DNA of 64,000 nt, taken from a virus. Numbering within the stretch: position 1 is the stretch's first letter; each line of letters opens with the position of its first letter. The DNA lies in the IMG/VR virus record IMGVR_UViG_3300030012_003189, positions 1 to 64,000 of that record; one strand, written 5' to 3'. The notes beneath the pieces were generated by a model. The model worked only from the letters and a program-made list of their open reading frames with translations. It did not search any database and was not told the origin of the DNA. The translations under genes were made by a program, and so were the position numbers. Positions 3,001-63,388 of this stretch are shown here, piece by piece.

Positions 3001-4833
3001 CGTTTCTGTTTCAATAGTACCGAATCTACTTTGGAATGAAGAAGTTGTAGATTCAATAGTTTCAAATCTATTTTGGAATGAAGAAGTTGTTGATTCTATA
3101 CTTCCAAATTTATTTTCAAAAGAAGAAGTTGTTACTTCTAAATTATTTAATCTTATTGTAGTTGAAGCGGTATATGCATTTATACCTTCAATTGATTCTG
3201 TAAATTCATTTAATGATGTATTTTCATTTGATGAACTAAATGATTCTAAATTACTTAATTGTATTGTAGCTGAAGATGTAAAGTTATTTAAGTGACTTAC
3301 AGATGCTTCAGAAGATGAAGATACGAATCCTAATGCAGTTATTTGTGCAGATGAACTGATGAATACACTTCCAGTAAATGAGTTAATAGAAGCAGTTGCA
3401 TTTGCTAAATCATTAACTCTAGTTTCTAATGAAGATGAAGTAAATTCAATTCTTTCTAACCTTTGGTCGGTTGATGATGTATATGTGTTAAATCCATCTA
3501 ATCTCGTATCAGTAGATGATGTGTAAGAATTTAGAGATGTAATTATTGTTTTTTCTTCGTATGAACTGGTATTAGATTCAATTTGTTCAACTCTTTGTTC
3601 TAATGATGAAGTTGATGATTCTATATTATCTAATCTATCATCGGTAGATGCTGTATATGAATTAAGAGATGTATTCTCACCTCCACTACTACTTACAAAT
3701 CCCAATTCTGTTATTTGTGCTGAACCTGATATTGTTCCAGCTGGTATTGTATCTCCACTACTACTTACAAATCCTAAAGAAGTAATCTGTGCTGAACTAC
3801 TAACTATATCACTTCCACCTAATATTTGAATTGAACCACTAACAATACCACTCCCAATTGATTCATATGATGATGTAGCTTCTTCTAAAGAATCTAATCT
3901 ATTATCTTGGGCAACAGTACCAGTTTGTAATATAGTAACTCTATTATCTAATGAAGCAGTTGTTGATTCTATATCCAACAATCTTGTATCATTAGATGCG
4001 GTATATGTATTGACAGAACCTAATACATCAACTATCTGTTCTGAACCTGATACTACATTAGCAGGTAATTGTTCTGATGATGATATTAAACCAACTGGTA
4101 ATTGTTCTGATGAACTTAAAATACCCGTGCCAGCCAATACTTGTACTGAACCACTTACTAAACCAGCAGGTAAATTTGCTAAACTATCGAAATCTACTTG
4201 TTCTGAACCTGAGATTACATCATCTCCACCTGGTCTAAGTACTGAACCACTTACGATTCCTTCACCTAAATCAGTTGCGTATCTACTATCTAAATCTGAG
4301 TGTAATTGTGCAGATGATGATATTATTCCAGCAGGTAGTTGTTCTGAAGATGAAAGGATTCCAGTACTACCTAAGACTTGAATAGAACCACTAATTAGAC
4401 CCGCAGGTAAATTATCTAAACCTGTAAATGATACTTGAGATGAACCAGATACTACTCCTAACCCACCTACACTTAAAAAAGAACCACTTACTACACCATC
4501 ACCATCGGTGTTTAAATATCTTGTATCGAATGTAGATAATAATTGTGCTGCTCCAGATACTATTCCACCAGGCAATTGTTCAGATGAACTTATTAATCCA
4601 CCTGGTAATTGTTCCGAACCACTAAATACTCCTCTACCAGATAATTCAATGCCTGATAAGGTACTACCATCACCGAAAAACGATGAACCACTAATGTTTC
4701 CACTAGCACTAATAGAACCAGTAACATTTAGAGAACCTGTAAAGTTCGATGAACCACTTACTTGAAAATCTCCACTTACTGCGGATGCGGTTACAACACC
4801 ACTAATTTGTTTACTTGATATTAGATTGGCCAT
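1..4833 (-). CDS. Giant Ser/Thr/Gly-rich repetitive virion fibre protein (>=1611 aa, runs off the window; missing from ORF track)
   Basis: ATG at 4833-4831 overlaps the upstream stop (TAATG). Manual translation MANLISSKQISGVVTASAVSGDFQVSGSS... shows no stop down to position 1. Contains repeats (SSSEQLPGG, SGSAQITALGF, TSLNTFTSSIQTEVDGLSAATSSYLTS), coiled-coil segments and a C1q-like block. Follows the neck genes. Confidence 0.9.
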   Translation of the reverse strand, partial: MANLISSKQISGVVTASAVSGDFQVSGSSNFTGSLNVTGSISASGNISGSSFFGDGSTLSGIELSGRGVFSGSEQLPGGLISSSEQLPGGIVSGAAQLLSTFDTRYLNTDGDGVVSGSFLSVGGLGVVSGSSQVSFTGLDNLPAGLISGSIQVLGSTGILSSSEQLPAGIISSSAQLHSDLDSRYATDLGEGIVSGSVLRPGGDDVISGSEQVDFDSLANLPAGLVSGSVQVLAGTGILSSSEQLPVGLISSSEQLPANVVSGSEQIVDVLGSVNTYTASNDTRLLDIESTTASLDNRVTILQTGTVAQDNRLDSLEEATSSYESIGSGIVSGSIQILGGSDIVSSSAQITSLGFVSSSGDTIPAGTISGSAQITELGFVSSSGGENTSLNSYTASTDDRLDNIESSTSSLEQRVEQIESNTSSYEEKTIITSLNSYTSSTDTRLDGFNTYTSSTDQRLERIEFTSSSLETRVNDLANATASINSFTGSVFISSSAQITALGFVSSSSEASVSHLNNFTSSATIQLSNLESFSSSNENTSLNEFTESIEGINAYTASTTIRLNNLEVTTSSFENKFGSIESTTSSFQNRFETIESTTSSFQSRFGTIETETASIDARLDNIEGATSSYETIGRSIVSGSSQLTSSYDERYEARASAAKTLLSASIQVNYEELANLPDNIVSSSEQLPGGLVSGSIQVLGGTDIISGSEQLQDLGFRSGSLITGEVSDIELEMSGSGSFKRKALTDSYQNLEFISTPLFQTGSSNWTISDGSFVRITTSGTYLLNSNFTLFKANDNDRVALFKWQRSLNNTDWTDVSGSTFGIGSPSQEPDYAYGGGVSTTFFESGSYVRIVGKIDASSEEPIALHNSDSEGGRSTVSMFLINGTNAGGGGGGSTDLGSLSPSVIDVANDSIGFIDASNSDGSRRESVVDLVNAIAGTNITANNGQLSTIGPAGTISGSAQITALGFSSGSIGQVESASFDDRLDQVQTVTESFAQRIGSLEGESGSYLTQAPAGTVSGSDQLSSSFELRGSGIVSGAQQVTDLGFAVTSSNTFNGTQTFSGSILPATPSTYDLGSLDKPFRDLFITSESIKFVKDGAVLSEIKADSEQIKIGNIRITTSSIELINNAGNVVQNVVEGTFTGGDVTAGNVKAPSGTISGSEQITGLGFISSSDSTTSLNTFTSSIQTEVDGLSAATSSYLTSLDSNIVSSSEQITALGFVSESGGENTSLNAFTSSANVQLSNLESFTGSVLISSSAQITALGFVSESGGENTSLNTFTSSIQTEVDGLSAATSSYLTSSGSVDFTDITSIPSGIVSGSEQLPGGLVSSSAQSVAHITGADLDMGGNKVLFGNVYSNEGDLPNASTYHGMFAHVHSTGRGYFAHAGAWHPLVNLSDGVLSGSIESQLPSGTISSSAQITGLGFISSSDSTTSLNTFSSSIQTEVDALSAATSSYLTSLDSGIISSSEQLPGGIVSGSSQLTGLGFLSGSLLPGTNITINSGSDGFFISSSAGGGASVTVSDSAPGSPSEGDLWWKSNDGNLYVYYDGYWVISIDTTNALPTGVLSGSAQITALGFISSSDSTTSLNSYTASTDVRINQLASETGSYLTSLDS

Positions 4834-8385: not shown

Positions 8386-10008
8386 TTAGATTTGGTCCAT
8401 ATCTGCGATATCGATAGTACCATAGAATTCTGGTCTTACCATTTTCTTAGCGTATCTAGTCATTACACCTCTTCGAGGAGTAAAGTTAGATGGGTCATAT
8501 ACCAACGGAGTCATGATTAGTGGTACATATGGTGCGTAAACCGCTCCACTTTCAAGGAAGTTATTTCCTTTGTATCCTAACAAGATTTGGTTAGTAGTCA
8601 TGTAAGGATTTTTGTACACAGTATATCTGTTAGATAATGCTCCGATAGCAGTTACACCTGCTGCGAACTCCATAGCATCTTTTCCAGCGTTTACAGTAAA
8701 CTGAGGAATTGATTCTAAGATAGTACATACATCAGGAGATGCTACGATAAAGTTAGCTCCACCTCTAAGAGTTAATTGGTGAATCTTATTAGATACTTTA
8801 TTGATTTTAGTACCTAATGTAGAGAACCAAGTGTTCTTAGTATAAGCTTGACCTGTAAATGAAGAAGTAGTAAATACTGAACCATTCCACTCTTCACCAA
8901 CTTTTGCTGACCATTTATCGTTAGTCAATGCACCAGCTCTAATCATATCTAAGATTTCTAAGTCAATCTCTAATGAGATATACTCAGATAACATAGATGT
9001 TAATTCAGCTTCAGCATCGATTGAATGGTAAGCGTTAAGGTCTTGCGCCAATTCAGGTGTCCATACTGCTTTCAACTTTCTAGTCTTAGCAACGATAGCC
9101 TCTGATTTCAACTCTAGGTCGATTTCAGGAATATCAAGTACAGTACCAGAACCTGCGTTTCCACCAGCATTGTTTACTGGGTCTCTATCTTCAAAGTCAC
9201 CTCTGTTAGTAGAAACAGGAACATTTGCGAACTTAACTCTAGCACCATCAACTAATGGTGAACCAGCAGATGCTGATACGAAGAATATGTAGTCAGTACC
9301 ACTTACTCTGTTATGCTCACCTACAGTTTCAACAAGAGCAACAGATGCAGAATCAATTGTAAATGCTTTGATTGCATCATCATCAGCTGTTGATGAAATG
9401 TTAGATTTAGCTATAGTTAATTTATGAATTTCTCCAGCTGCGATTGATGCGCTGATAGAACTATCATAATTTACATCTGAAAAAGATGCACTTGCAGCTG
9501 CTACATTAGCGGCTACTACATCTGCAGATTGGTCGTTAAGGGTATATCCATAACGTCCACTTCCATATAGACCATTTTTAGCAACATTAGTTGAACCTAA
9601 GTCCGAACCATCACCACCAAATAATGAAGAACCACTATAAGTAGTTGCTCCAAATTGTTGGTTGTTGTATTTAAAGTCTAGATAGAAAATAAGTCCTGAT
9701 GGTAAGTTCATTGGTTGAACAGAAACGAAGTTTTTCGCTGCAATTTCACCAAAGATTCTTCTTACCAAAGGAAGAGCTACACCATTCCACTCCTCATTAC
9801 CTGAGCCGTTAGAAGTAGCATTAGCTTCATCAAGCAATTGTTTTGCTTGGTTTTCTAAAAGAACCGACATTTGATGTTGGTCTCTTTCTTGTAAACCTTC
9901 AAGAAGTCCAGTTTTCTCCCATTTGTTCTTTAATCCTCTTGTTTCCGCAAGCATTACAGACTGTGGGTTCTTTCCTTCCATAAGTTTATTTAAATCAAAA
10001 TTTGCCAT
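8386..10008 (-). CDS. gp23: Major capsid protein (T4 gp23-like)
   Basis: LPLVRR, VSVQPMNLPSGLIFYLDF, AKTRKLKAVWTPELAQDLNAYHSIDAEAEL, YAPYVPL, FTPRRGVMTRY are hallmark gp23 motifs; strong SD AAGGAG. Confidence 0.97.
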   Translation of the reverse strand: MANFDLNKLMEGKNPQSVMLAETRGLKNKWEKTGLLEGLQERDQHQMSVLLENQAKQLLDEANATSNGSGNEEWNGVALPLVRRIFGEIAAKNFVSVQPMNLPSGLIFYLDFKYNNQQFGATTYSGSSLFGGDGSDLGSTNVAKNGLYGSGRYGYTLNDQSADVVAANVAAASASFSDVNYDSSISASIAAGEIHKLTIAKSNISSTADDDAIKAFTIDSASVALVETVGEHNRVSGTDYIFFVSASAGSPLVDGARVKFANVPVSTNRGDFEDRDPVNNAGGNAGSGTVLDIPEIDLELKSEAIVAKTRKLKAVWTPELAQDLNAYHSIDAEAELTSMLSEYISLEIDLEILDMIRAGALTNDKWSAKVGEEWNGSVFTTSSFTGQAYTKNTWFSTLGTKINKVSNKIHQLTLRGGANFIVASPDVCTILESIPQFTVNAGKDAMEFAAGVTAIGALSNRYTVYKNPYMTTNQILLGYKGNNFLESGAVYAPYVPLIMTPLVYDPSNFTPRRGVMTRYAKKMVRPEFYGTIDIADMDQI

Positions 10009-10035
10009 TTTTTCTCTCCTTATAAAATTAAAAAA

Positions 10036-11193
10036 TTATTTAATGTTAGCTAACTTTTTAAATCTGTTAGCTATCTCGTTACTTTCAGAAATAATTTCTT
10101 TCTTAGGAGCAGTTGAAGCTTGAGGTTTAGAAGCGATTCCTTCTGTTACTCTTACTTTTCTTTTAGTTTCTCCACCGAATTTCATTGATTCTGCTAAAGT
10201 AGCGAATACCAATTTCACCTCTCTTACAGATTTTGTTCTGTCAAGAGTTTCTACAACTTTACTCTTTTGGTCATTGTTCATAGCGTATGAACGGAATAAC
10301 TTGTTAGCGTAAAGTAATTTTGCGTTGAGTAGGTTGACTTCGTTGATTGTACTTTTAAGTTCTTTTACAGTAGCGTATGCTTCTTCAAGTTCTTTACTAA
10401 GTTCTTCAACTTTGTTAGATTCTTCCATGTCTTTCATTTCCTCTTCACCTTCTTCTTCTCCGTATCCCATTTCTTTTAGGATTTCGTCTAAGTCGATGTC
10501 TTCGTCCATGTCATCTTCTTCGGAATCTTTTTCCATTTCGTCCATATCAGCCATTTCTTCATCTCCATGCACTTCTTTATCTCCATGCACTTCTTTGTCT
10601 CCATGTACCTCTTTGTCTCCATGTACTTCTTCAACATCCTCATCATCTTCACCTTCTTCTTCAGAAAGTTCAGATTCTAATTCTCTGATGATATCTTCAA
10701 GATTTAACTCTTCGTCCATCTCGTCCTCATCATCACCTTCTTTTGCCATTTCGTCAACTTCTTCAGAATCTTCTTCTTCGTTTACTTCAGTTTCTTCCTT
10801 AACTTCTTCAGTTTCTTCAGATACAGTTTCTTCAACTTCATCCTCTTCTTCACCTTCTTTTAAGTCATCAACTTTGTCAACAGCGTCTAATTCTTCGCCA
10901 GGAGCTGCAGTCTCTTTTTCAGTTTCTGGGTCTAACTCAGTATGAGCCTCATCGTACTCAGGTTCTTTGTTATCTCCACTACCGATGTTTGAAGAATCTA
11001 ACTCTTCTGCTACTTCTTCCATTTCATCTTCTTCTTCTTCTTCAGCCATTTCTGATTGAAGTTTTTTAGATAAAATTGATTGTAGCTTTGGAGTAAATGC
11101 TTCTTCTAATGCGATTTTAGCATTAGCGATTGCAGTTTCTCTTACAGCTTTAGCGTCAGCGATGGCTTCTTTTAATAATTTAGAATTTGCCAT
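10036..11193 (-). CDS. Prohead core scaffold protein (gp22-like), highly acidic
   Basis: 385 aa, Glu/Asp-rich, directly upstream of MCP; C-terminal coiled coil ending RFKKLANIK; many hydrophobic-x-E sites. Confidence 0.85.
   Translation of the reverse strand: MANSKLLKEAIADAKAVRETAIANAKIALEEAFTPKLQSILSKKLQSEMAEEEEEDEMEEVAEELDSSNIGSGDNKEPEYDEAHTELDPETEKETAAPGEELDAVDKVDDLKEGEEEDEVEETVSEETEEVKEETEVNEEEDSEEVDEMAKEGDDEDEMDEELNLEDIIRELESELSEEEGEDDEDVEEVHGDKEVHGDKEVHGDKEVHGDEEMADMDEMEKDSEEDDMDEDIDLDEILKEMGYGEEEGEEEMKDMEESNKVEELSKELEEAYATVKELKSTINEVNLLNAKLLYANKLFRSYAMNNDQKSKVVETLDRTKSVREVKLVFATLAESMKFGGETKRKVRVTEGIASKPQASTAPKKEIISESNEIANRFKKLANIK
10559..10630 (-). repeat. 18-bp tandem repeat x4 encoding EVHGD(K/E)
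   Basis: Near-identical tctccatgYacYtcttt units; protein EVHGDKEVHGDKEVHGDKEVHGDE. Confidence 0.9.
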
Positions 11194-11337
11194 TTTTTGC
11201 CTTCCTTATTAATGTGAAAATATTATGGGATTTCCAATGATGTTAGGTCGGTTGTTCGGTCACCTCATAATAATGGGTATTCATTAACCAACTGAAATTC
11301 AAACACACATAGAATGGTGTGTTACTGAGTATAAGTA
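11194..11337 (-). promoter_or_regulatory. Promoter variant (TACTTATA) plus ~135-nt structured 5' leader of scaffold-MCP operon
   Basis: Hairpin AACACAC/GTGTGTT (11302-11323); stem GTTGGTT/AACCGAC (11286-11292 with 11247-11253) enclosing ACCCAT-TATT-ATGAGGT; SD-like AAGGAAGG. Confidence 0.55.
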
Positions 11338-11362
11338 TTATAATAGATTAAAAAACGTAAAA

Positions 11363-11629
11363 TTATCTTCGTTTTTTTCTTTTCTTTGTAAATAATCTGA
11401 TTGTTCTATCACCATTATCTATCTTTTCCAACATAGTTAACTTCTGTTGTTCCCTTACTGCTGCTTGTTTTTGTTTTCTTCTTACAGTTGTAGGTTTTGT
11501 GTATTGTTGTTTAGTTCTCAACAATTGAAGATGACCAGATTCATCTATTCTTCTTTTAAAAATTTTAAGTGCTTTTTGTATGTTTCCGTTTCTTACTTGT
11601 ACAGAAACTAATTTTGGGTGTTTACTCAT
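11363..11629 (-). CDS. rpsU: Phage-encoded ribosomal protein bS21
   Basis: VQVRNGNIQKALKIFKRRIDESG...QYTKPTTVRRKQKQAAVR matches the S21 family pattern; location among head genes is as described for bS21 phages. Confidence 0.9.
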   Translation of the reverse strand: MSKHPKLVSVQVRNGNIQKALKIFKRRIDESGHLQLLRTKQQYTKPTTVRRKQKQAAVREQQKLTMLEKIDNGDRTIRLFTKKRKKRR

Positions 11630-11647
11630 TCTCCTTTATTTAAATAA

Positions 11648-11983
11648 CTATGCGCCTGTTTTTGAGAAAGTTGGCTTTTTACCTTTAGACCTGTTTCCTC
11701 CCTTTTTAGAATCACCAGCTTTCTTTTGGTCTGCTCTTTTTCTCCTTACAAATGCTGCTCTACCTTTAGCTCCTAATTTAGCTGCTTTTTCTTTTGATAA
11801 ACATGCTGCGTATGCATCACCTTTTTTACCTCCACCACATTTACCTAATTTTTGTCCATCAGAACCATATCTATCCCATCCTCCACCTGATGAAGAACCA
11901 GTCTTACCTTTACCAAACCACTTACGCAAATCTTCGTTTTGTGGTTCGTTTACTAATTCATGTAGGATATCTGTTAAGTTCAT
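11648..11983 (-). CDS. Basic putative internal head protein
   Basis: Leader MNLTDILHELVNE followed by a Lys/Gly-rich module (EDLRKWF...GGWDRY...YAACL). Confidence 0.6.
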   Translation of the reverse strand: MNLTDILHELVNEPQNEDLRKWFGKGKTGSSSGGGWDRYGSDGQKLGKCGGGKKGDAYAACLSKEKAAKLGAKGRAAFVRRKRADQKKAGDSKKGGNRSKGKKPTFSKTGA

Positions 11984-11984
11984 C

Positions 11985-13043
11985 TTATTTTTTTGTTAAC
12001 ATATATAGTTTTTCCTCTGCATCTGGTACAGTTTTGTATTTACTTGGATTTTCTCCAAATCCTCTTAATGCTTTGTCAATAAATTTTTTGTAATCTCTTG
12101 GACCAATTCTTCTTTCATGTTCTGCCATCTTATCATAAAACTTTTTTTCAGTTTTAGAATATTTGGACATTACTTGGACCGCTTTACTTTCTTTCGTTTT
12201 AGATTCATCAATACCTCTGATTTTCTTTTGGGTCATCATTACTTTAAATCCATCTCTCTTCATATCAGCCATAAACTTTTGAGCCATCTTTTTATCGGCG
12301 TAAGCTGCGAATGCAGGTTTGATAGGTTTAGGTCCTTTTCCGTATGCAACAACAAATGCTTCATCTACTGGCCCTTCATCATCACCCTCATCATCTCTAT
12401 ACGTTCTAAAACTTCTATCAATGGTTTCTGATGTTTTTTCTTCTGAATCTAAATAGTGATATGCTTTTGATACATAATCTCTTGCTAATGTAAGTTTTGA
12501 TTGCCACCAATTAGGAAAATCAACTTCACCTTCCATATCATCATACTTATCTAACTTATCCATCAGTTTTTTACCATACTCCATTATCTCTAATGCAGTT
12601 GATTTTAACATATTTGGTTCATCATCTTGATGTCCTACATCAGTATCCTCTCCGATACCTTCACCGAATCCATATTTGTATCCACCTCTATGTAAAGCGT
12701 TTACAAACTTTGCTAAATCTTTTTTGTTTCTGAAAATTTGTATATCAAAGAAATCACTACCATCTTTGTGTTTCTTTTTACCATCATGGTAAGAGATTAC
12801 ATATTTTGATTTACCGACACCATCTTTTTGATTGTATCTTTTTGGTCCTTCATCTATAGCTTTTGGAAATTTTGTTTTTTTAGCAAGTTGTAGAAGTTTT
12901 TTAACATCAGCTGGTTTGTTTCTATTGAACTTATCAGCGTTCTTCTTATCTTTGAATATAGCAGAAACCATTTTATTACCATCACGAATCATAATGATAA
13001 TACCCTTTTTACCAAAAAATCTTTCTGTTTCTACTTTAGCCAT
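11985..13043 (-). CDS. Multi-module putative internal head polyprotein
   Basis: 352 aa; modules separated by IDE/G, IGE/D, VDE/A, IDE/S; includes FPNWWQSKLTLARDYVSKAYHYL module. Confidence 0.55.
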   Translation of the reverse strand: MAKVETERFFGKKGIIIMIRDGNKMVSAIFKDKKNADKFNRNKPADVKKLLQLAKKTKFPKAIDEGPKRYNQKDGVGKSKYVISYHDGKKKHKDGSDFFDIQIFRNKKDLAKFVNALHRGGYKYGFGEGIGEDTDVGHQDDEPNMLKSTALEIMEYGKKLMDKLDKYDDMEGEVDFPNWWQSKLTLARDYVSKAYHYLDSEEKTSETIDRSFRTYRDDEGDDEGPVDEAFVVAYGKGPKPIKPAFAAYADKKMAQKFMADMKRDGFKVMMTQKKIRGIDESKTKESKAVQVMSKYSKTEKKFYDKMAEHERRIGPRDYKKFIDKALRGFGENPSKYKTVPDAEEKLYMLTKK

Positions 13044-14804: not shown

Positions 14805-16091
14805 TTAACTTTTCCTTTTTACTACCTTATGTAAATCTTCTAATCTTGAAATAGCATCTTCAATGTGATTTAATGCATCATTGTTTTCACCAGCATTTAG
14901 TAAATCCATCATTTCTTCAAAGTCTTGCTTTATGTTTCCATTCTGAGCTTTCGCCATTCTGATAAGGTTTCTATCAGGTCTACCCTCAGGTAACATTTTA
15001 CTTAATCTCATTGAAGATTCATTAGTATCATCAAAAATTGATTGCATTTTTAATGCTAAATCTTTACTTCCATTTACTTTTAAATCAAATGCGATAGCAT
15101 CTAATGCATCTCTACCATCATAAGAAGCTTCTTGAGAAGCAAATTGTCCTATCTCATCAGTACCAGGTGATGAATCATAATATGAAGAACCATATACACT
15201 ATTCTTTCTCCATTTATCATATTCAGGTGACATGATATCTGGCATATTAGGGTCTTTTCTTGGGTCTTTAGCAAAATCAGGATTATCTTCTAACATTGCG
15301 ATTAATTTTCTTGCTTCAGAATGGAAGTTTGAATCTGTTAATGCTTCTACTGCTGCTTGACCCATTCTTCTTTGATATTCTTCTTTACCTAAGTTCTTTG
15401 GACTAATTCCGATTCTTTTTATTTTACTACGAACTGCTTTGTTTACTTCAATGTTTCCTGCTCTACCACCAGTCGAATCTTTTTGTGGTCCACTATCTTT
15501 AGGTTCTTCTTTATCTTTTTCACCTTTAAGTTTTTGTCCTAACTCTTTTGCGTATGCTACTGCATCTTCTTTACTATTGAATGATTTGTAATGATTATCA
15601 GCACGAGCATTATCCATATCATCAACTTTTCCACCAAATACGGCAAATTTATTAGGGTCATCAAATAATTTACCTTTAGAAATTTGCATATAATTACCAT
15701 CCGAATCTTCAAAATCTTCAGTACCTTCCATTCCACCCAAATCAGCTGATGAGAATCCCATATCTTTCATTGTTGATTCGATATCTCTTTTAAAATCTTT
15801 AAACTTAGCTTTCTTAGGTTTATCTTTTTCACCGGCAGAAGAGTCACCTCCCTTCGCTGCCTTATCTTTTTTTGGTTTATCAAAAATATTTACTTTAGGT
15901 TTATCGGTTGGGTCTTTAACTGCACCATCCTTATCATCTTTTCTTTTTTCGTGAGTACCTGCTTTTATTGCAGCATCTCTTGCTGCTTTTGATTTAAATA
16001 CAGAAGTTGTACCTGTTTCTTTACTGGTAGCAGTAAAAACATCTGCTTCAGTAATTGGTTTTAAATCTATTAATCCACCTAATTTTATCAT
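14805..16091 (-). CDS. Putative internal head protein, Lys/Asp-rich
   Basis: 428 aa; leader MIKLGGLIDLKPITE/A; directly downstream of prohead protease. Confidence 0.55.
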   Translation of the reverse strand: MIKLGGLIDLKPITEADVFTATSKETGTTSVFKSKAARDAAIKAGTHEKRKDDKDGAVKDPTDKPKVNIFDKPKKDKAAKGGDSSAGEKDKPKKAKFKDFKRDIESTMKDMGFSSADLGGMEGTEDFEDSDGNYMQISKGKLFDDPNKFAVFGGKVDDMDNARADNHYKSFNSKEDAVAYAKELGQKLKGEKDKEEPKDSGPQKDSTGGRAGNIEVNKAVRSKIKRIGISPKNLGKEEYQRRMGQAAVEALTDSNFHSEARKLIAMLEDNPDFAKDPRKDPNMPDIMSPEYDKWRKNSVYGSSYYDSSPGTDEIGQFASQEASYDGRDALDAIAFDLKVNGSKDLALKMQSIFDDTNESSMRLSKMLPEGRPDRNLIRMAKAQNGNIKQDFEEMMDLLNAGENNDALNHIEDAISRLEDLHKVVKRKS

Positions 16092-16672
16092 GATAATTCT
16101 GTTATTATTTCTCTTATTAAATCGTGTGCTTTACAATAATCTCCACAAACTTCATTAACTTTAAGTTGTTTTGATTCGTTCATCGGAGTCATAAATGCAC
16201 CATGTGTAGACGGGTTGGATACAAAATCCCAACCTATTAGTTCAAAATCATCACCAACAGTTACACCACCACCATTTCTTGGTTCTACTGAACCCATACC
16301 TCTTGATGAGATACCTAATAGAATGCCAGCTTTTAACAATTCTTTAAGAATGTTACCAGATGGCGTTGGTAGTATTTCAACAGTTCCCATCAAATCATCA
16401 TTTTCCCAATGAATTTCTCTAATGTTGTGTGATACGTTCTTTAAATTTATTACAGAAGATTCTGGATGGTCTAACTCACCCAACGCTCTTCTTTCTTTTA
16501 TGAGAGTTTCATATTTCTTAGCTTCTCTCATTAGAATTTCTTTAGGATAAACCCTTTCGTTTTGGTTAGGCGCTTCAGCTCTCTGTAAGATTCCTTTTAC
16601 GATAGTTCTACCTGATGAATCTTCGTTTATTTTACCTTCGAATAAATGAGTTTCTATAAGTAAATTTTTCAT
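16088..16672 (-). CDS. gp21: Prohead core protease (T4 gp21-like)
   Basis: NQNERVYP, ALGELDHP, VSHNI, GISSRGMGS, WDFVSNPST motifs; likely start is ATG 16672 (TAATG coupling, SD GGGGAG). Confidence 0.93.
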   Translation of the reverse strand: MKNLLIETHLFEGKINEDSSGRTIVKGILQRAEAPNQNERVYPKEILMREAKKYETLIKERRALGELDHPESSVINLKNVSHNIREIHWENDDLMGTVEILPTPSGNILKELLKAGILLGISSRGMGSVEPRNGGGVTVGDDFELIGWDFVSNPSTHGAFMTPMNESKQLKVNEVCGDYCKAHDLIREIITELS

Positions 16673-16857
16673 TATGCTCCCCAACTTCTACGTTTTTTAA
16701 ATAATTCAAAAAATATTGCTGAAACTTCTTGTCTGATAATCTTACGAATCTTATCTTCATCTTCGTTAGTTACCTCTTCATTGACTAAAGAAATTCCACC
16801 ATATTTGTGGATTAGAATTTCTTCTTTAACAATTTGTTTCAACTTATCTATTTTCAT
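16672..16857 (-). CDS. Small putative head-associated protein
   Basis: 61 aa; MKIDKLKQIVKEE leader. Confidence 0.6.
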   Translation of the reverse strand: MKIDKLKQIVKEEILIHKYGGISLVNEEVTNEDEDKIRKIIRQEVSAIFFELFKKRRSWGA

Positions 16858-18439: not shown

Positions 18440-20170
18440 TTATTCCTCTATAATGTTATTTTCATCCAACATATCTGTCTCTTGAAGAAACTTTCGTTTT
18501 GATGAAACACCATTAACTATACTCTTAATTTTATCGGATGATAACCTGGTTTCCTTCTTTAACGCATTTTTACGTTCTTCGTCCCCAAGAGGGTCTCTAC
18601 CATAAGGATGTTTATCTTTCTTATAAGTATTACCTTCTCTCGGTCTACCACCTTTATCTTTCAACTCATTTTTAAGATTTTCCAAAGATTCTTCTACATC
18701 AACTGGCTCTTCATCTTCTTTAGCTGGGTCACTACCCTCATCTTCGATTGAACGGAATCTGTATCTATCTTTTAAATCTTCAATCATTGTTTCTCTTTGT
18801 TTATCAGATTCACCTCTACTCAATTTAAAGATATTATCATATACCCATTCTTTGGATAACATATTTAAACCTTGAATGTCTTGTGCTAATCTAATCTTTT
18901 CACTCCAAAGATTTACTTTTTCTTGCTCATATATCATTGATGGGTTAACCAATCCTAATTCAAAGTTAGTTAACTCTGCATCTTGAATACCTTGTGAGTA
19001 TAAATGAACGATTGCAATTTTTGTTAACTCAGAAATTACAATTCTTTGGATTCTTTCGATTGTTCTTGCGAATCTAACATCTTCAGCTGCTAATGTTGCT
19101 TTACCATTAACCTGCTCTTCGTATCCTAAATAAGCTTTTGGTATTTTAAGAGCTGCAAATAGTTTATTTTTAAGATAATCAATATCTTCAATGTTACTAA
19201 ACTCTAAACCTGATAGGTTTTCAATATTAGTACCACTATCACCACCTCTGACTGGTAAGTAAAAATCTTCTGTAAGGTTTTGTATATTATACTTTAGGTT
19301 GTAATCACCTGTATTTTGGTCAACAAATGGAATCTTCTTCATTTTGTTGATGATTCTTTGCATATAGTTATCTACTTCGTTTGGTGGGATGTTACCTATA
19401 TCAATTTTGAACACTCTCTTTTCAGGTGCTCTCATAATTCTATGAATCAACATAGCATCTTCCATCAGAGATAATTGTTTCCATAATCTTCTACCATTTT
19501 CAATCATAGCTTTACCATATGGTAAGAAGTTTGTATCAGCTAATAATCTAAAATGTGCTACTTCGAAGTTATCATAATCCACTTTACCTAATGAATCATC
19601 TTCTACGTGGAATTTTACAAAGTTTGGATTGTTAGGGTCTGTATTTTCTAATCTTTCTGTATTGTAAACAGATAGTGGAGATACATTTACAATACCTTTA
19701 CCCTCAGCCATCTCCAATGAAAGGAAGAAATCTCCATACTTACACATATTTCTTACCCAAGGCCAAAGATTGAATTCAATATTTAGTACATCGTAGAATA
19801 AGTTGTTTAGAATCTGTTGTACTTGTTCATTTGTTGAACGAACTGTAAGAATATCACCATATTCATTCTTTAGTGTTGATTCATCAGCGTATATATCTAA
19901 TGCTGATGCCAAAATAGGGTCATTATCCATAGCATCATAATCTCTGAATAATTCTCTACGAACTTGTTGATATGCCATTGATTGGGCTGCACCTGCTGAT
20001 TCGTAAAATCCTTTTTGTAATTTTGTGTATCGGTCTCTTAGATGAGATAAGTTTGTTTTTTGTCTCATATCGACATCAGAAACTTTTCTTCTACCTTTAG
20101 CATCGACTCTAACGACTGCTTGTGTAGCGAATAGTTTTCTTAATCTACCGAAAAATGAAGTATCTGCCAT
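18440..20170 (-). CDS. gp20: Portal protein (T4 gp20-like)
   Basis: QLSLMEDAMLIHRIMRAPEKRVFKIDIGN, EDFYLPVRGG, LFAALKIP motifs. Confidence 0.95.
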   Translation of the reverse strand: MADTSFFGRLRKLFATQAVVRVDAKGRRKVSDVDMRQKTNLSHLRDRYTKLQKGFYESAGAAQSMAYQQVRRELFRDYDAMDNDPILASALDIYADESTLKNEYGDILTVRSTNEQVQQILNNLFYDVLNIEFNLWPWVRNMCKYGDFFLSLEMAEGKGIVNVSPLSVYNTERLENTDPNNPNFVKFHVEDDSLGKVDYDNFEVAHFRLLADTNFLPYGKAMIENGRRLWKQLSLMEDAMLIHRIMRAPEKRVFKIDIGNIPPNEVDNYMQRIINKMKKIPFVDQNTGDYNLKYNIQNLTEDFYLPVRGGDSGTNIENLSGLEFSNIEDIDYLKNKLFAALKIPKAYLGYEEQVNGKATLAAEDVRFARTIERIQRIVISELTKIAIVHLYSQGIQDAELTNFELGLVNPSMIYEQEKVNLWSEKIRLAQDIQGLNMLSKEWVYDNIFKLSRGESDKQRETMIEDLKDRYRFRSIEDEGSDPAKEDEEPVDVEESLENLKNELKDKGGRPREGNTYKKDKHPYGRDPLGDEERKNALKKETRLSSDKIKSIVNGVSSKRKFLQETDMLDENNIIEE

Positions 20171-27664: not shown

Positions 27665-27710
27665 AAATACACCCTATCAGTATATAAATATAAGATTATA
27701 AGAAAGGGGA

Positions 27711-27818
27711 TTATTTTTTGTAAACAAACGGGTCTCTCTTTTTAAGCTCTTTTATACGCTTTTTATAGAGTCTTTCCATTTTCCAATCTTTATATTTTTT
27801 TTTAATCCAGTTTATCAT
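27711..27818 (-). CDS. 35-aa basic micropeptide (not in track)
   Basis: MINWIKKKYKDWKMERLYKKRIKELKKRDPFVYKK; fills the gap, starting 1 nt after the upstream TAG. Confidence 0.65.
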   Translation of the reverse strand: MINWIKKKYKDWKMERLYKKRIKELKKRDPFVYKK

Positions 27819-27819
27819 A

Positions 27820-44509: not shown

Positions 44510-45370
44510 TTAAATTTTTAATATTCCTTTTGTTAGTCTATTCCAATATTGATAATCCCAATGTTCGTTTTCAATAGGAATTTGTCTTTCCAATCCAAAC
44601 TTTACATTATCGATATCTATTTTCCAATCATTATCTTTGATTGCGTTATACATCTTTTTGTATTCTTCCCAAAAAGTGTAATCTTCTTCTGTTTCTGAAA
44701 CTTCTTTTAATCTTTCTAAAACAGTTGAATCCCATTTGAAGTGATGAACTTGTACAAATCCTTCACCTCTACCAGGTGGGTATCTTAAAGAGTGATTAAC
44801 ACCTTCTTCTCCCCACACATCCTTTCCATCAATATGTGCGTAATGCTGTCCGTTTGTTATTTGAATCTTTCCTTTCATTACACACACTTTATTTGGACAA
44901 GCTCCACTAAGTGGATACCTAAAAAAACCACTATATGGAAACGCTTCCCATATATTAGTTTCGCTATCTACAATGGGAAAACTCCCATCCTCTCCAATCC
45001 TATCCAAGAATCCACCTGTGATAAACTCCCATCCTTTTACTTCACATTCATCAATCATTTCTTCAATTGGCTTTGGATAAATCTGAATCTCATCATCATC
45101 TGATACAATCCACCAATCGTTTGGTTTAGTCATCTTTACTTCATTATAAAGTTCAGTTACCTTTTCCCAATGAAACTTTGGTTCAGTTACTACTTTGTAA
45201 GGAGTCAATCCCAAGTTTTCAATTTCCTCTAATATCCCATCGTTCTCATCTTGTCGATAAACTACGATAAAGATATTTTTTTCATCCACAAATTGCTGAT
45301 AGTATTTCAACATATGTGGTAACATAGTGATGTTATGCCCAACTACTGTTACTAAGTTTAAACCCTGCAT
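44510..45370 (-). CDS. GT-A fold (GT2-like) glycosyltransferase
   Basis: MLPHMLKYY, WWIVSDDDE (DxD), HHFKW; likely start is MQGLNLV at 45370 rather than 45448. Confidence 0.7.
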   Translation of the reverse strand: MQGLNLVTVVGHNITMLPHMLKYYQQFVDEKNIFIVVYRQDENDGILEEIENLGLTPYKVVTEPKFHWEKVTELYNEVKMTKPNDWWIVSDDDEIQIYPKPIEEMIDECEVKGWEFITGGFLDRIGEDGSFPIVDSETNIWEAFPYSGFFRYPLSGACPNKVCVMKGKIQITNGQHYAHIDGKDVWGEEGVNHSLRYPPGRGEGFVQVHHFKWDSTVLERLKEVSETEEDYTFWEEYKKMYNAIKDNDWKIDIDNVKFGLERQIPIENEHWDYQYWNRLTKGILKI

Positions 45371-46137
45371 CTTTGTATCAGTGTCAACCCAGTTGTAGAT
45401 GGTTTTTCTTTCATCACCCCGTTGTTGAAGAAATTGAAAAGTTCCCATTCGTTACTTTCTTTTAGTTCTTTTATGAGTTTATTAGGTCCATCAAATGGAG
45501 CATGATGGTTTTTTTCTTTTACATCTTCCGTTATGATGAGTTCTTTTTCAAAAGATTCATCTGTATCGTGGATTGAAATTACACCATAATCCGATAAGAT
45601 ACTTGAGTAAAGAGTAAAATCATTTTTAACATCATCATACGAGTGACCCGCATCTATGTGTAGGTAATCTATCTTTATATCTTCCTTAACAAAGAAGTTA
45701 TAAAATGCGTTTTCGGTGGTATCTAAGATAACTCTACAATCAAAGTTTTTCCTAAAGAATGAACGTTTATCCGTCCAATCAGTAAACCCTCCTACTCCGT
45801 TATCTGCATCAACTACGAATGTAGTACCACAATCACCCCACTCCATCTGTTTTAGACCTGTAAATATTTTTTGGTCATGCAAATCTATTCTCGCTTGTGT
45901 CATTATACGAGGAATAAATCCACCACCACTTCCTAAACATACACATACCTTTGCTCTCATCATTTGTATGGTAGAATATATAATCATACCATCACCTAAA
46001 TGTAAATCGGTTGCTCCATGTGTCCATCTATATGGAACAGGTGCAATATCAGTAAAAGGTTTACCATTAGTATCCCTCTTTTTGACTTGATTGTTTGATA
46101 TGTATTTTTCTATTAAACCTAAATTAAGTAAAGACAT
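45358..46137 (-). CDS. Class I SAM-dependent methyltransferase (sugar O-methyltransferase type)
   Basis: VCLGSGGG; IDYLHIDAGHSY; ISIHDT; upstream TATTTATA at 46161-46168. Confidence 0.8.
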   Translation of the reverse strand: MSLLNLGLIEKYISNNQVKKRDTNGKPFTDIAPVPYRWTHGATDLHLGDGMIIYSTIQMMRAKVCVCLGSGGGFIPRIMTQARIDLHDQKIFTGLKQMEWGDCGTTFVVDADNGVGGFTDWTDKRSFFRKNFDCRVILDTTENAFYNFFVKEDIKIDYLHIDAGHSYDDVKNDFTLYSSILSDYGVISIHDTDESFEKELIITEDVKEKNHHAPFDGPNKLIKELKESNEWELFNFFNNGVMKEKPSTTGLTLIQRCRV

Positions 46138-63359: not shown

Positions 63360-63388
63360 ATGATATTACTCCTTTATATAAATATCAC

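Follow-up and report, generated by a model that had tools for sequence, protein, structure and literature searches.

Does the non-coding stretch that separates the ribosomal protein bS21 gene from the scaffold-like and major capsid protein (MCP) genes of an uncultivated phage hold an RNA leader and, if it does, what would such a leader do? We addressed this question in a window of 64,000 nt, which comprises the first 64 kb of the 102.9-kb IMG/VR virus record IMGVR_UViG_3300030012_003189 and in which all genes lie on the minus strand. An earlier note, made from the sequence alone, had described the gap at this place as the longest of the window and as more GC-rich than the others, and had proposed that it encodes a structured, cis-acting leader of the scaffold-MCP operon, with a promoter of its own. 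The gap spans 169 nt (11194-11362) and is indeed the longest true gap in the window, with a GC content of 0.30 versus 0.13-0.25 in most other gaps. The core of the proposal is also borne out by covariation in relatives, RNA contigs are in line with it, and we hold it to be almost certain that the leader is a real, conserved RNA located in cis. An apparent gap of 746 nt elsewhere in the window was discarded, as it is filled by an ORF (45358-46137), and the second-longest gap (27665-27819, 155 nt) seems to contain a small basic ORF starting ATGATAAACTGG and not to be non-coding. The features of the locus are given in Table 1.

Table 1. Features of the leader, its operon and its surroundings; positions are those of the window.
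Feature	Positions	Strand	Description
Operon served by the leader	8386-11193	minus	Scaffold-like gene (10036-11193) and MCP gene (8386-10008); closed by the terminator-like site 8359-8338
Gp23-type MCP	8386-10008	minus	Pfam PF07068, E 3e-79
Scaffold-like acidic protein, 385 aa	10036-11193	minus	ATG at 11193-11191
Translation initiation region	11191-11214	minus	A-rich tract, SD-like AAGGAAGG (11207-11200), ATG (11193-11191)
H3	11236-11215	minus	7-bp hairpin UGGAAAU / CCCAUAAU / AUUUUCA; loop begins with C residues and ends in AAU
Domain 2	11292-11247	minus	7-bp basal stem, two A-rich internal loops flanking a 2-bp helix, apical stem with 1-nt bulge
Domain 2, basal stem	11292-11286 and 11253-11247	minus	GUUGGUU/AACCGAC
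Domain 2, 5' internal loop	11285-11279	minus	AAUGAAU
Domain 2, 3' internal loop	11261-11254	minus	GACCGAAC
Domain 2, apical hairpin	11278-11262	minus	ACCCAU-UAUU-AUG(A)GGU; bulged A at 11265, on the 3' side
H1	11323-11302	minus	7-bp hairpin at the predicted mRNA 5' end; AACACAC / 8-nt loop / GUGUGUU, arms 11323-11317 and 11308-11302
Late-promoter box (probable)	11338-11330	minus	ATACTTATA, a variant of the recurrent ATATTTATA of the window
Weak hairpin and U-run	11350-11378	minus	Lies across the bS21 stop codon; folds at -5.9 kcal/mol (z -2.9)
Ribosomal protein bS21	11363-11629	minus	PF01165, E 8e-14; stop codon at 11365-11363
Head maturation protease	16088-16684	minus	ORF
Portal	18440-20170	minus	ORF

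No proteins of a tailed phage are made in larger amounts than its scaffold and major capsid proteins. Of the two genes downstream of the gap, the second is clearly that of the MCP, while the first encodes an acidic protein that gave no matches when compared with Pfam and PHROG. We infer that it is the scaffold from its position between the protease and the capsid gene, from its composition and from a weak Atlas lead to the scaffold family of T4 capsid assembly (T4_CASP, 0.79). Judged by the capsid protein, no cultured phages are closer than Microcystis phage Mel-JY01 and Flavobacterium phage immuto, with identities of about 50%, and DNA of the phage is present in marine metagenomes. Scanning the minus strand from 11213 to 8386, we found no terminator-like site inside the operon, the first one appearing after the MCP gene, at 8359-8338. 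This site directly follows the MCP gene and precedes the promoter box of the next one; its strong G-C hairpin is symmetric, T-runs are present on either strand, and it is a bidirectional terminator-like site that closes the operon.

Upstream of the leader, the box that had been pointed out as a promoter variant at 11330-11337, TACTTATA, differs by one base from ATATTTATA, which recurs in the window upstream of at least ten other genes, 15-35 nt from their start codons. On the minus strand, ATATTTATA(T) has its first base at 63384, 62072, 53199, 46168, 27690, 23616, 20628, 18416, 17118 and 8301, and it is probably the late promoter of this phage. Although it lies on the coding strand, its sequence is that of the T4 late box TATAAATA in reverse complement. 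Leaders of the other late genes in the window measure only about 20-35 nt and contain no hairpins. In every relative, a box of the form ATAYWTAT lies 8-9 nt upstream of H1, a spacing with which the stem would begin a few nucleotides from the predicted mRNA 5' end. For comparison, a 5'-terminal stabilizer hairpin is expected to have its stem start some 0-4 nt from the end of its mRNA.

Two further elements were seen between the bS21 gene and the promoter box. The weak hairpin that overlaps the bS21 stop codon changes its stem from ACG/CGU to CCG/CGG in two relatives (L006 and L009). It was not called in the terminator scan, having too few G-C pairs, and may act on the upstream transcript as a leaky terminator. 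Besides, the sequence TTTCTTTAGTTTTCTAAAAAA is nearly invariant about 20-45 nt upstream of the box in most of the main freshwater-type group (L019-L137), where it could form a small hairpin or else serve as an upstream promoter element.

The leader itself covers about 115 nt of the minus strand and consists of three modules, H1, domain 2 and H3, followed by an A-rich or SD-like site and the scaffold ATG. The stems, loops, apical hairpin and SD described in the earlier note are all where it had put them; its list of hairpins was right for H1, the basal stem and the apical hairpin and was incomplete, as the third hairpin, H3, had been overlooked. Within domain 2, the 5' and 3' loops are joined by a central helix of two pairs (G-C and U-G). 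H3 ends 22 nt before the ATG in the window, and 20-33 nt before the AUG across members of the family. Regarding folding energy, the z-scores were -0.6 for the whole gap, -1.1 for the whole leader, -2.3 for H1, -2.8 for domain 2 (which folds at -12 kcal/mol) and -0.1 for H3. The statement that the region appears to fold thus stands by covariation, whereas the energy of the single sequence is only modestly better than chance, and it is on the covariation evidence that we base a structure beyond chance.

The site in front of the scaffold ATG is not uniform: some leaders have an SD-like AAGGAG/AAGGAAGG and others only an A-rich tract (compare L019, L022, L023, L053, L104 and L108 with 11200-11207). 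Ribosomes of Bacteroidia ignore SD sequences unless bS21 is missing, and the variable presence of an SD within a single leader family is of interest given this behavior. Bacteroidota-type host ribosomes have been found to largely ignore SD sequences (PMC9976891, PMC7797042).

A search with the scaffold-like protein yielded 16 IMG/VR loci, in eight of which the gap keeps 82-95% nucleotide identity while the flanking bS21 proteins share only 62-78% in most cases; compensatory changes were already visible among them. An exact pattern made from the two loop sequences of domain 2 matched at least 120 IMG/VR contigs, giving 89 distinct leaders (the main set), every one of them immediately followed by the conserved region around the scaffold start codon. 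We then used a degenerate pattern for the N-terminal coding sequence of the scaffold as the source of a second set, free of loop-pattern bias; the 18 new loci tested from it and a prokaryote-binned contig from a separate scan (L140), 19 loci altogether, all carry the leader according to a covariance model, with E ≤4e-7. This model, R1, has 122 positions and 30 pairs and was built from 20 sequences. In total, the covariance model found the leader in 108 of the 108 related loci tested.

In the main set, standard pairs are formed in 98.6% of 2450 cells, and 17 of the 30 pairs show compensatory changes: all seven of H1, three in the basal stem, four in the apical stem and three in H3. None of 500 column shuffles reached the observed values, and sliding the 3' partners by 1-3 columns lowered pairing to 30-49%. 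The second set gave 96.6% of cells paired and compensatory changes in 14 of the 30 pairs. Relatives therefore show both the conservation and the covariation whose absence the earlier note had named as counting against it. The stem of H1 has at least 17 distinct sequences, with 99% of its cells paired, while H3 is paired in 100% of cells. The 3' bulge of the apical stem is always present, with a base and an exact position that vary. Since G-U pairs are frequent, at several positions, the structure belongs to the mRNA-sense strand; G-U pairs and compensatory changes together show that the leader is an RNA structure on that strand.

The stems vary and the core of domain 2, UGAAUA / A-N-CGAA, does not. 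Its invariance in the large set is partly a matter of ascertainment, as the search pattern required those bases, but it also holds in the unbiased set, which amounts to 16 distinct rows. Domain 2 is 76-98% identical in nucleotides where the proteins have fallen to 55-60% (MCP), about 44% (scaffold) and about 30% (bS21). Its central pair appears as U-G, U-A or C-G, which argues for a 2-bp helix between the two A-rich loops. A putative U55-G76 pair closing the apical stem was broken in 5 of the 16 distinct rows of the second set and was dropped. Both strands of domain 2 read YGAAYA, so that its center is quasi-symmetric, an observation that we do not take as evidence of function. We also considered and rejected a kink-turn, for which the only tandem G-A register needs G80: this base is A in four distinct leaders, and U51 changes to C with G80 kept, which fits a Watson-Crick or wobble 51-80 pair instead. 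A leader peptide was discarded as well, because the AUG of the 5' loop opens frames of 5, 8 or 13 codons that encode unrelated peptides, and it is ACG or GUG in some members.

At the RNA level, contigs from four metatranscriptome runs cover the capsid gene, the scaffold gene and the leader. The most informative is an exact 221-nt contig from X15 (11105-11325), in which 132 nt of leader are joined to 88 nt of coding sequence; contigs from X20 and X17 likewise span the leader and scaffold coding sequence. These contigs hint that the leader is co-transcribed with the scaffold-like gene. A transcription start downstream of the stems, the other outcome that the earlier note had set against its own reading, is not what they indicate, since they hold the stems together with the scaffold coding sequence. 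The end of the X15 contig falls 5 nt after the promoter box and lies 2 nt ahead of H1, and it hints at agreement with the fixed spacing between promoter and H1, although contigs cannot prove a start or a strand. Another contig, from a relative in X20, reaches 11345, past the promoter box. In three runs there was no RNA cover over 11348-12100, including bS21, which we read as a weak hint only. Contig depth was not used to rank expression.

Regarding distribution, considerably more than 100 aquatic phages, all of them uncultivated, carry the leader, and in each it precedes the scaffold-like gene. There is a single copy in the 102.9-kb record and a single significant one in each of three CheckV-complete genomes (252, 271 and 202 kb). 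The phages with the leader belong to a large, uncultivated T4-like clade from aquatic settings, and the cultured phage closest to it has a Flavobacterium host. When the region was compared by blastn with 50,697 phage records, the only match was the N-terminus of the immuto scaffold, so at that sensitivity domain 2 is in no cultured phage. Among 185,579 prokaryote genomes, the exact domain 2 pattern had one match, in a 5.9-kb contig of an Ignavibacteria MAG (L140, JBEICW010000203.1), which holds a full-scoring copy of the leader at 4331-4453 (125 bits). Most simply, this contig comes from a phage and was mis-binned with the MAG, and we did not count it as a host signal.

More distant relatives (L010-L016 and immuto) have a simpler leader, made of the promoter box, the 8-9 nt spacer and an H1 of different sequence, usually with a second, H3-like hairpin whose loop ends in AAU and always without domain 2. 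Since these phages keep the simple hairpin leader, domain 2 appears, from this sequence comparison, to be a clade-specific module inserted into an older one; as they manage without it, it is inessential for capsid expression in this lineage. In immuto (L001, MW353175.1), an annotated 30-aa CDS, immuto26A_203 (3866-3958), overlies the promoter box, H1 and the second hairpin, and is probably not a gene.

We then compared the leader with known RNAs. The Rfam search that had been suggested for this region gave no matching family: the whole window had no match in Rfam 15 at gathering thresholds and, at E up to 10, the only matches were a snoRNA on the wrong strand (14.7 bits versus 43) and a c-di-GMP-I in the coding sequence of L071 (15.7 bits versus 35). 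In the literature, the motif strings occurred only in unrelated papers. The closest parallels are therefore of kind. The E. coli ompA leader and the T7 phi10 hairpin are established 5' stem-loop stabilizers of mRNA; like them, H1 would lie a few nucleotides from the predicted start of a very abundant mRNA, with a free sequence and a strictly kept pairing, but unlike them it is one of three modules. The T7 gene 10 leader (g10-L) is a translational enhancer before the major capsid gene and resembles our leader in its length and in its restriction to the capsid operon of a lytic phage, the other late genes here having short leaders. However, g10-L acts through a short single-stranded sequence complementary to 16S rRNA, whereas here the conserved bases are in internal loops of helices. 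With autogenous operators (the T4 gene 32 pseudoknot, the T4 RegA sites and the leaders of r-proteins) the leader shares a structured 5' UTR with invariant unpaired nucleotides and covarying stems, present once per genome and before one operon. It differs from them in that domain 2 is clear of the start site, that there is no similarity to Rfam leaders by sequence or model and that the binding protein is here only putative.

Two previous studies are close to this work. Fremin et al. 2023 (PMC10690425) also used IMG/VR intergenic regions and described 8,495 candidate structured RNAs, some of them upstream of capsid, gp20 and gp32 genes; going by its main text, none is a motif before a scaffold gene or beside bS21, and our leader may already be, unnamed, among these candidates. 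Chen et al. 2022 (PMC9723584) described freshwater Bacteroidetes phages encoding bS21, in which the capsid gene and a hypothetical gene upstream of it appear to be co-transcribed, without mention of promoters, intergenic regions or RNA structure. In those phages bS21 is on the strand opposite to the structural genes, whereas here it is on the same one. According to these comparisons, the leader is a new and widespread phage RNA of a known general kind, the structured cis-regulatory 5' UTR, with a central domain that has no described relative.

What the leader does can be approached from its parts. We put at about even the chance that it is a cis-acting 5' UTR of the scaffold-MCP late mRNA that combines a 5' stabilizing hairpin with an operator-like platform for a slowly evolving trans factor. 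Transcription would start a few nucleotides after the late-promoter box, leaving H1 at the very 5' end, where it would protect the most abundant late mRNA from 5'-end-dependent decay. By analogy with known stabilizers, 5'-end protection is the best supported role for H1, since its position is fixed to the promoter, its sequence is free and it is kept in lineages without the other modules. In domain 2, the invariant A-rich loops on covarying stems would form a specific binding surface; loops that are invariant in sequence on stems that are free point to a specific partner. This could be a host component (the 30S platform or a ribosomal protein, RNA polymerase, an RNase or an RNA chaperone) that would set the translation or the lifetime of the capsid mRNA. 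A fast-evolving phage protein seems to us less likely than a host component that evolves slowly or an intrinsic ligand-binding fold, since the loops are identical while the phage proteins diverge to 30-60% identity. Lying at the border of the ribosome footprint, H3 would keep open the A-rich start region or help to place the 30S subunit. The start region has an unpaired probability of 0.59 versus 0.49 in the rest of the leader, a difference that does not make it clearly less structured and is uninformative.

Other explanations have to be weighed against a stabilizing hairpin joined to a binding platform. The leader could be a feedback or recognition site for phage bS21 or for bS21-modified ribosomes, in line with the link between bS21 and the leader implied in the earlier note. 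The genomic side of that link stands, since bS21 is directly upstream and on the same strand in 60 of the 75 loci with enough upstream sequence, and is encoded in all three complete genomes with the leader; H3, besides, ends at what we take to be the mRNA exit of the 30S platform, near bS21. But in two of those genomes (G001, 252 kb, and G004, 271 kb) bS21 is more than 100 kb away from the leader, so adjacency is dispensable, and at other loci the upstream gene encodes a DUF5856 protein, a DUF3008 protein or an unknown one. Phage bS21 goes down to about 30% identity with the loops unchanged, and five relatives (L011-L015) have an adjacent bS21 and no domain 2. The element is downstream of bS21, not in the place of an autoregulatory leader, and the promoter between them leaves it outside the bS21 mRNA leader. 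We consider this function very improbable. Even less credible is an element that binds RNA polymerase for antitermination (like HK022 put) or an independent small RNA: a place immediately after the promoter and several hairpins with internal loops would suit both, but with no terminator from the leader to the end of the MCP gene there is nothing to read through, and a separate small RNA is at odds with RNA contigs that join leader and coding sequence and with the lack of a terminator after H3.

The remaining alternatives concern mainly domain 2. If the leader were a structural insulator without a trans factor, its hairpins would guard the 5' end and block upstream pairing with the A-rich start region, and the persistence of H1 and an H3-like hairpin in distant relatives without domain 2 does indicate that a simple hairpin leader suffices in this lineage. 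We deem this unlikely, because it leaves unexplained some 11 invariant loop nucleotides on freely varying stems. In a 5' UTR, such nucleotides gathered in the internal loops of covarying stems are the classic signature of a riboswitch aptamer, which would sense a small molecule or ion and gate capsid synthesis by the host's metabolic state; some phages do have riboswitches. Yet no Rfam aptamer matched even at the relaxed threshold, the downstream genes are structural and not metabolic, and we found no conserved alternative pairing or expression platform, nor a U-run after H3. A second arm complementary to the basal stem exists in only 1 of the 89 leaders, and pairing of the H3 loop with the SD, tried as a pseudoknot or masking device, was not significant (means of -2.68 kcal/mol for native and -2.49 kcal/mol for cross pairs, permutation p ~0.1). 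A riboswitch is thus quite unlikely, and we give the same low credence to domain 2 being an RNase III-type processing site, where cutting would yield the mature capsid mRNA, with a new and stable end. In favor of such a site, domain 2 is a helix of about two turns that internal loops break up, it lies in the leader of a late mRNA of very high abundance, and the single-cut RNase III sites of T7 (R1.1 type), also in late mRNA, have a similar length and internal loops. Nevertheless, RNase III recognition needs no sequence-invariant loops, whereas those of domain 2 are invariant; cleavage would discard H1, which no other module matches in breadth of conservation; and domain 2 is crossed by RNA contigs, by that of X15 without a break, although contigs cannot exclude partial cleavage. 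A last, bolder reading of domain 2, possible and still on the unlikely side, is that of an undescribed aptamer class whose quasi-symmetric YGAAYA strands dock a conserved host component (such as the Bacteroidota 30S platform) or a small ligand.

The stabilization and translation of capsid mRNA in Bacteroidota-type hosts are poorly understood, and the leader offers a concrete, testable RNA element of about 115 nt, with clean covariation, more than 100 natural variants and a defined invariant core, in phages that also encode their own bS21 (compare PMC9723584). It is a ready candidate for a new Rfam family and for a metagenome marker of this phage clade. If the aptamer reading were true, large bS21-encoding phages could switch on capsid-protein synthesis selectively late in infection. 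The leader is, in sum, a new candidate regulator of capsid production.
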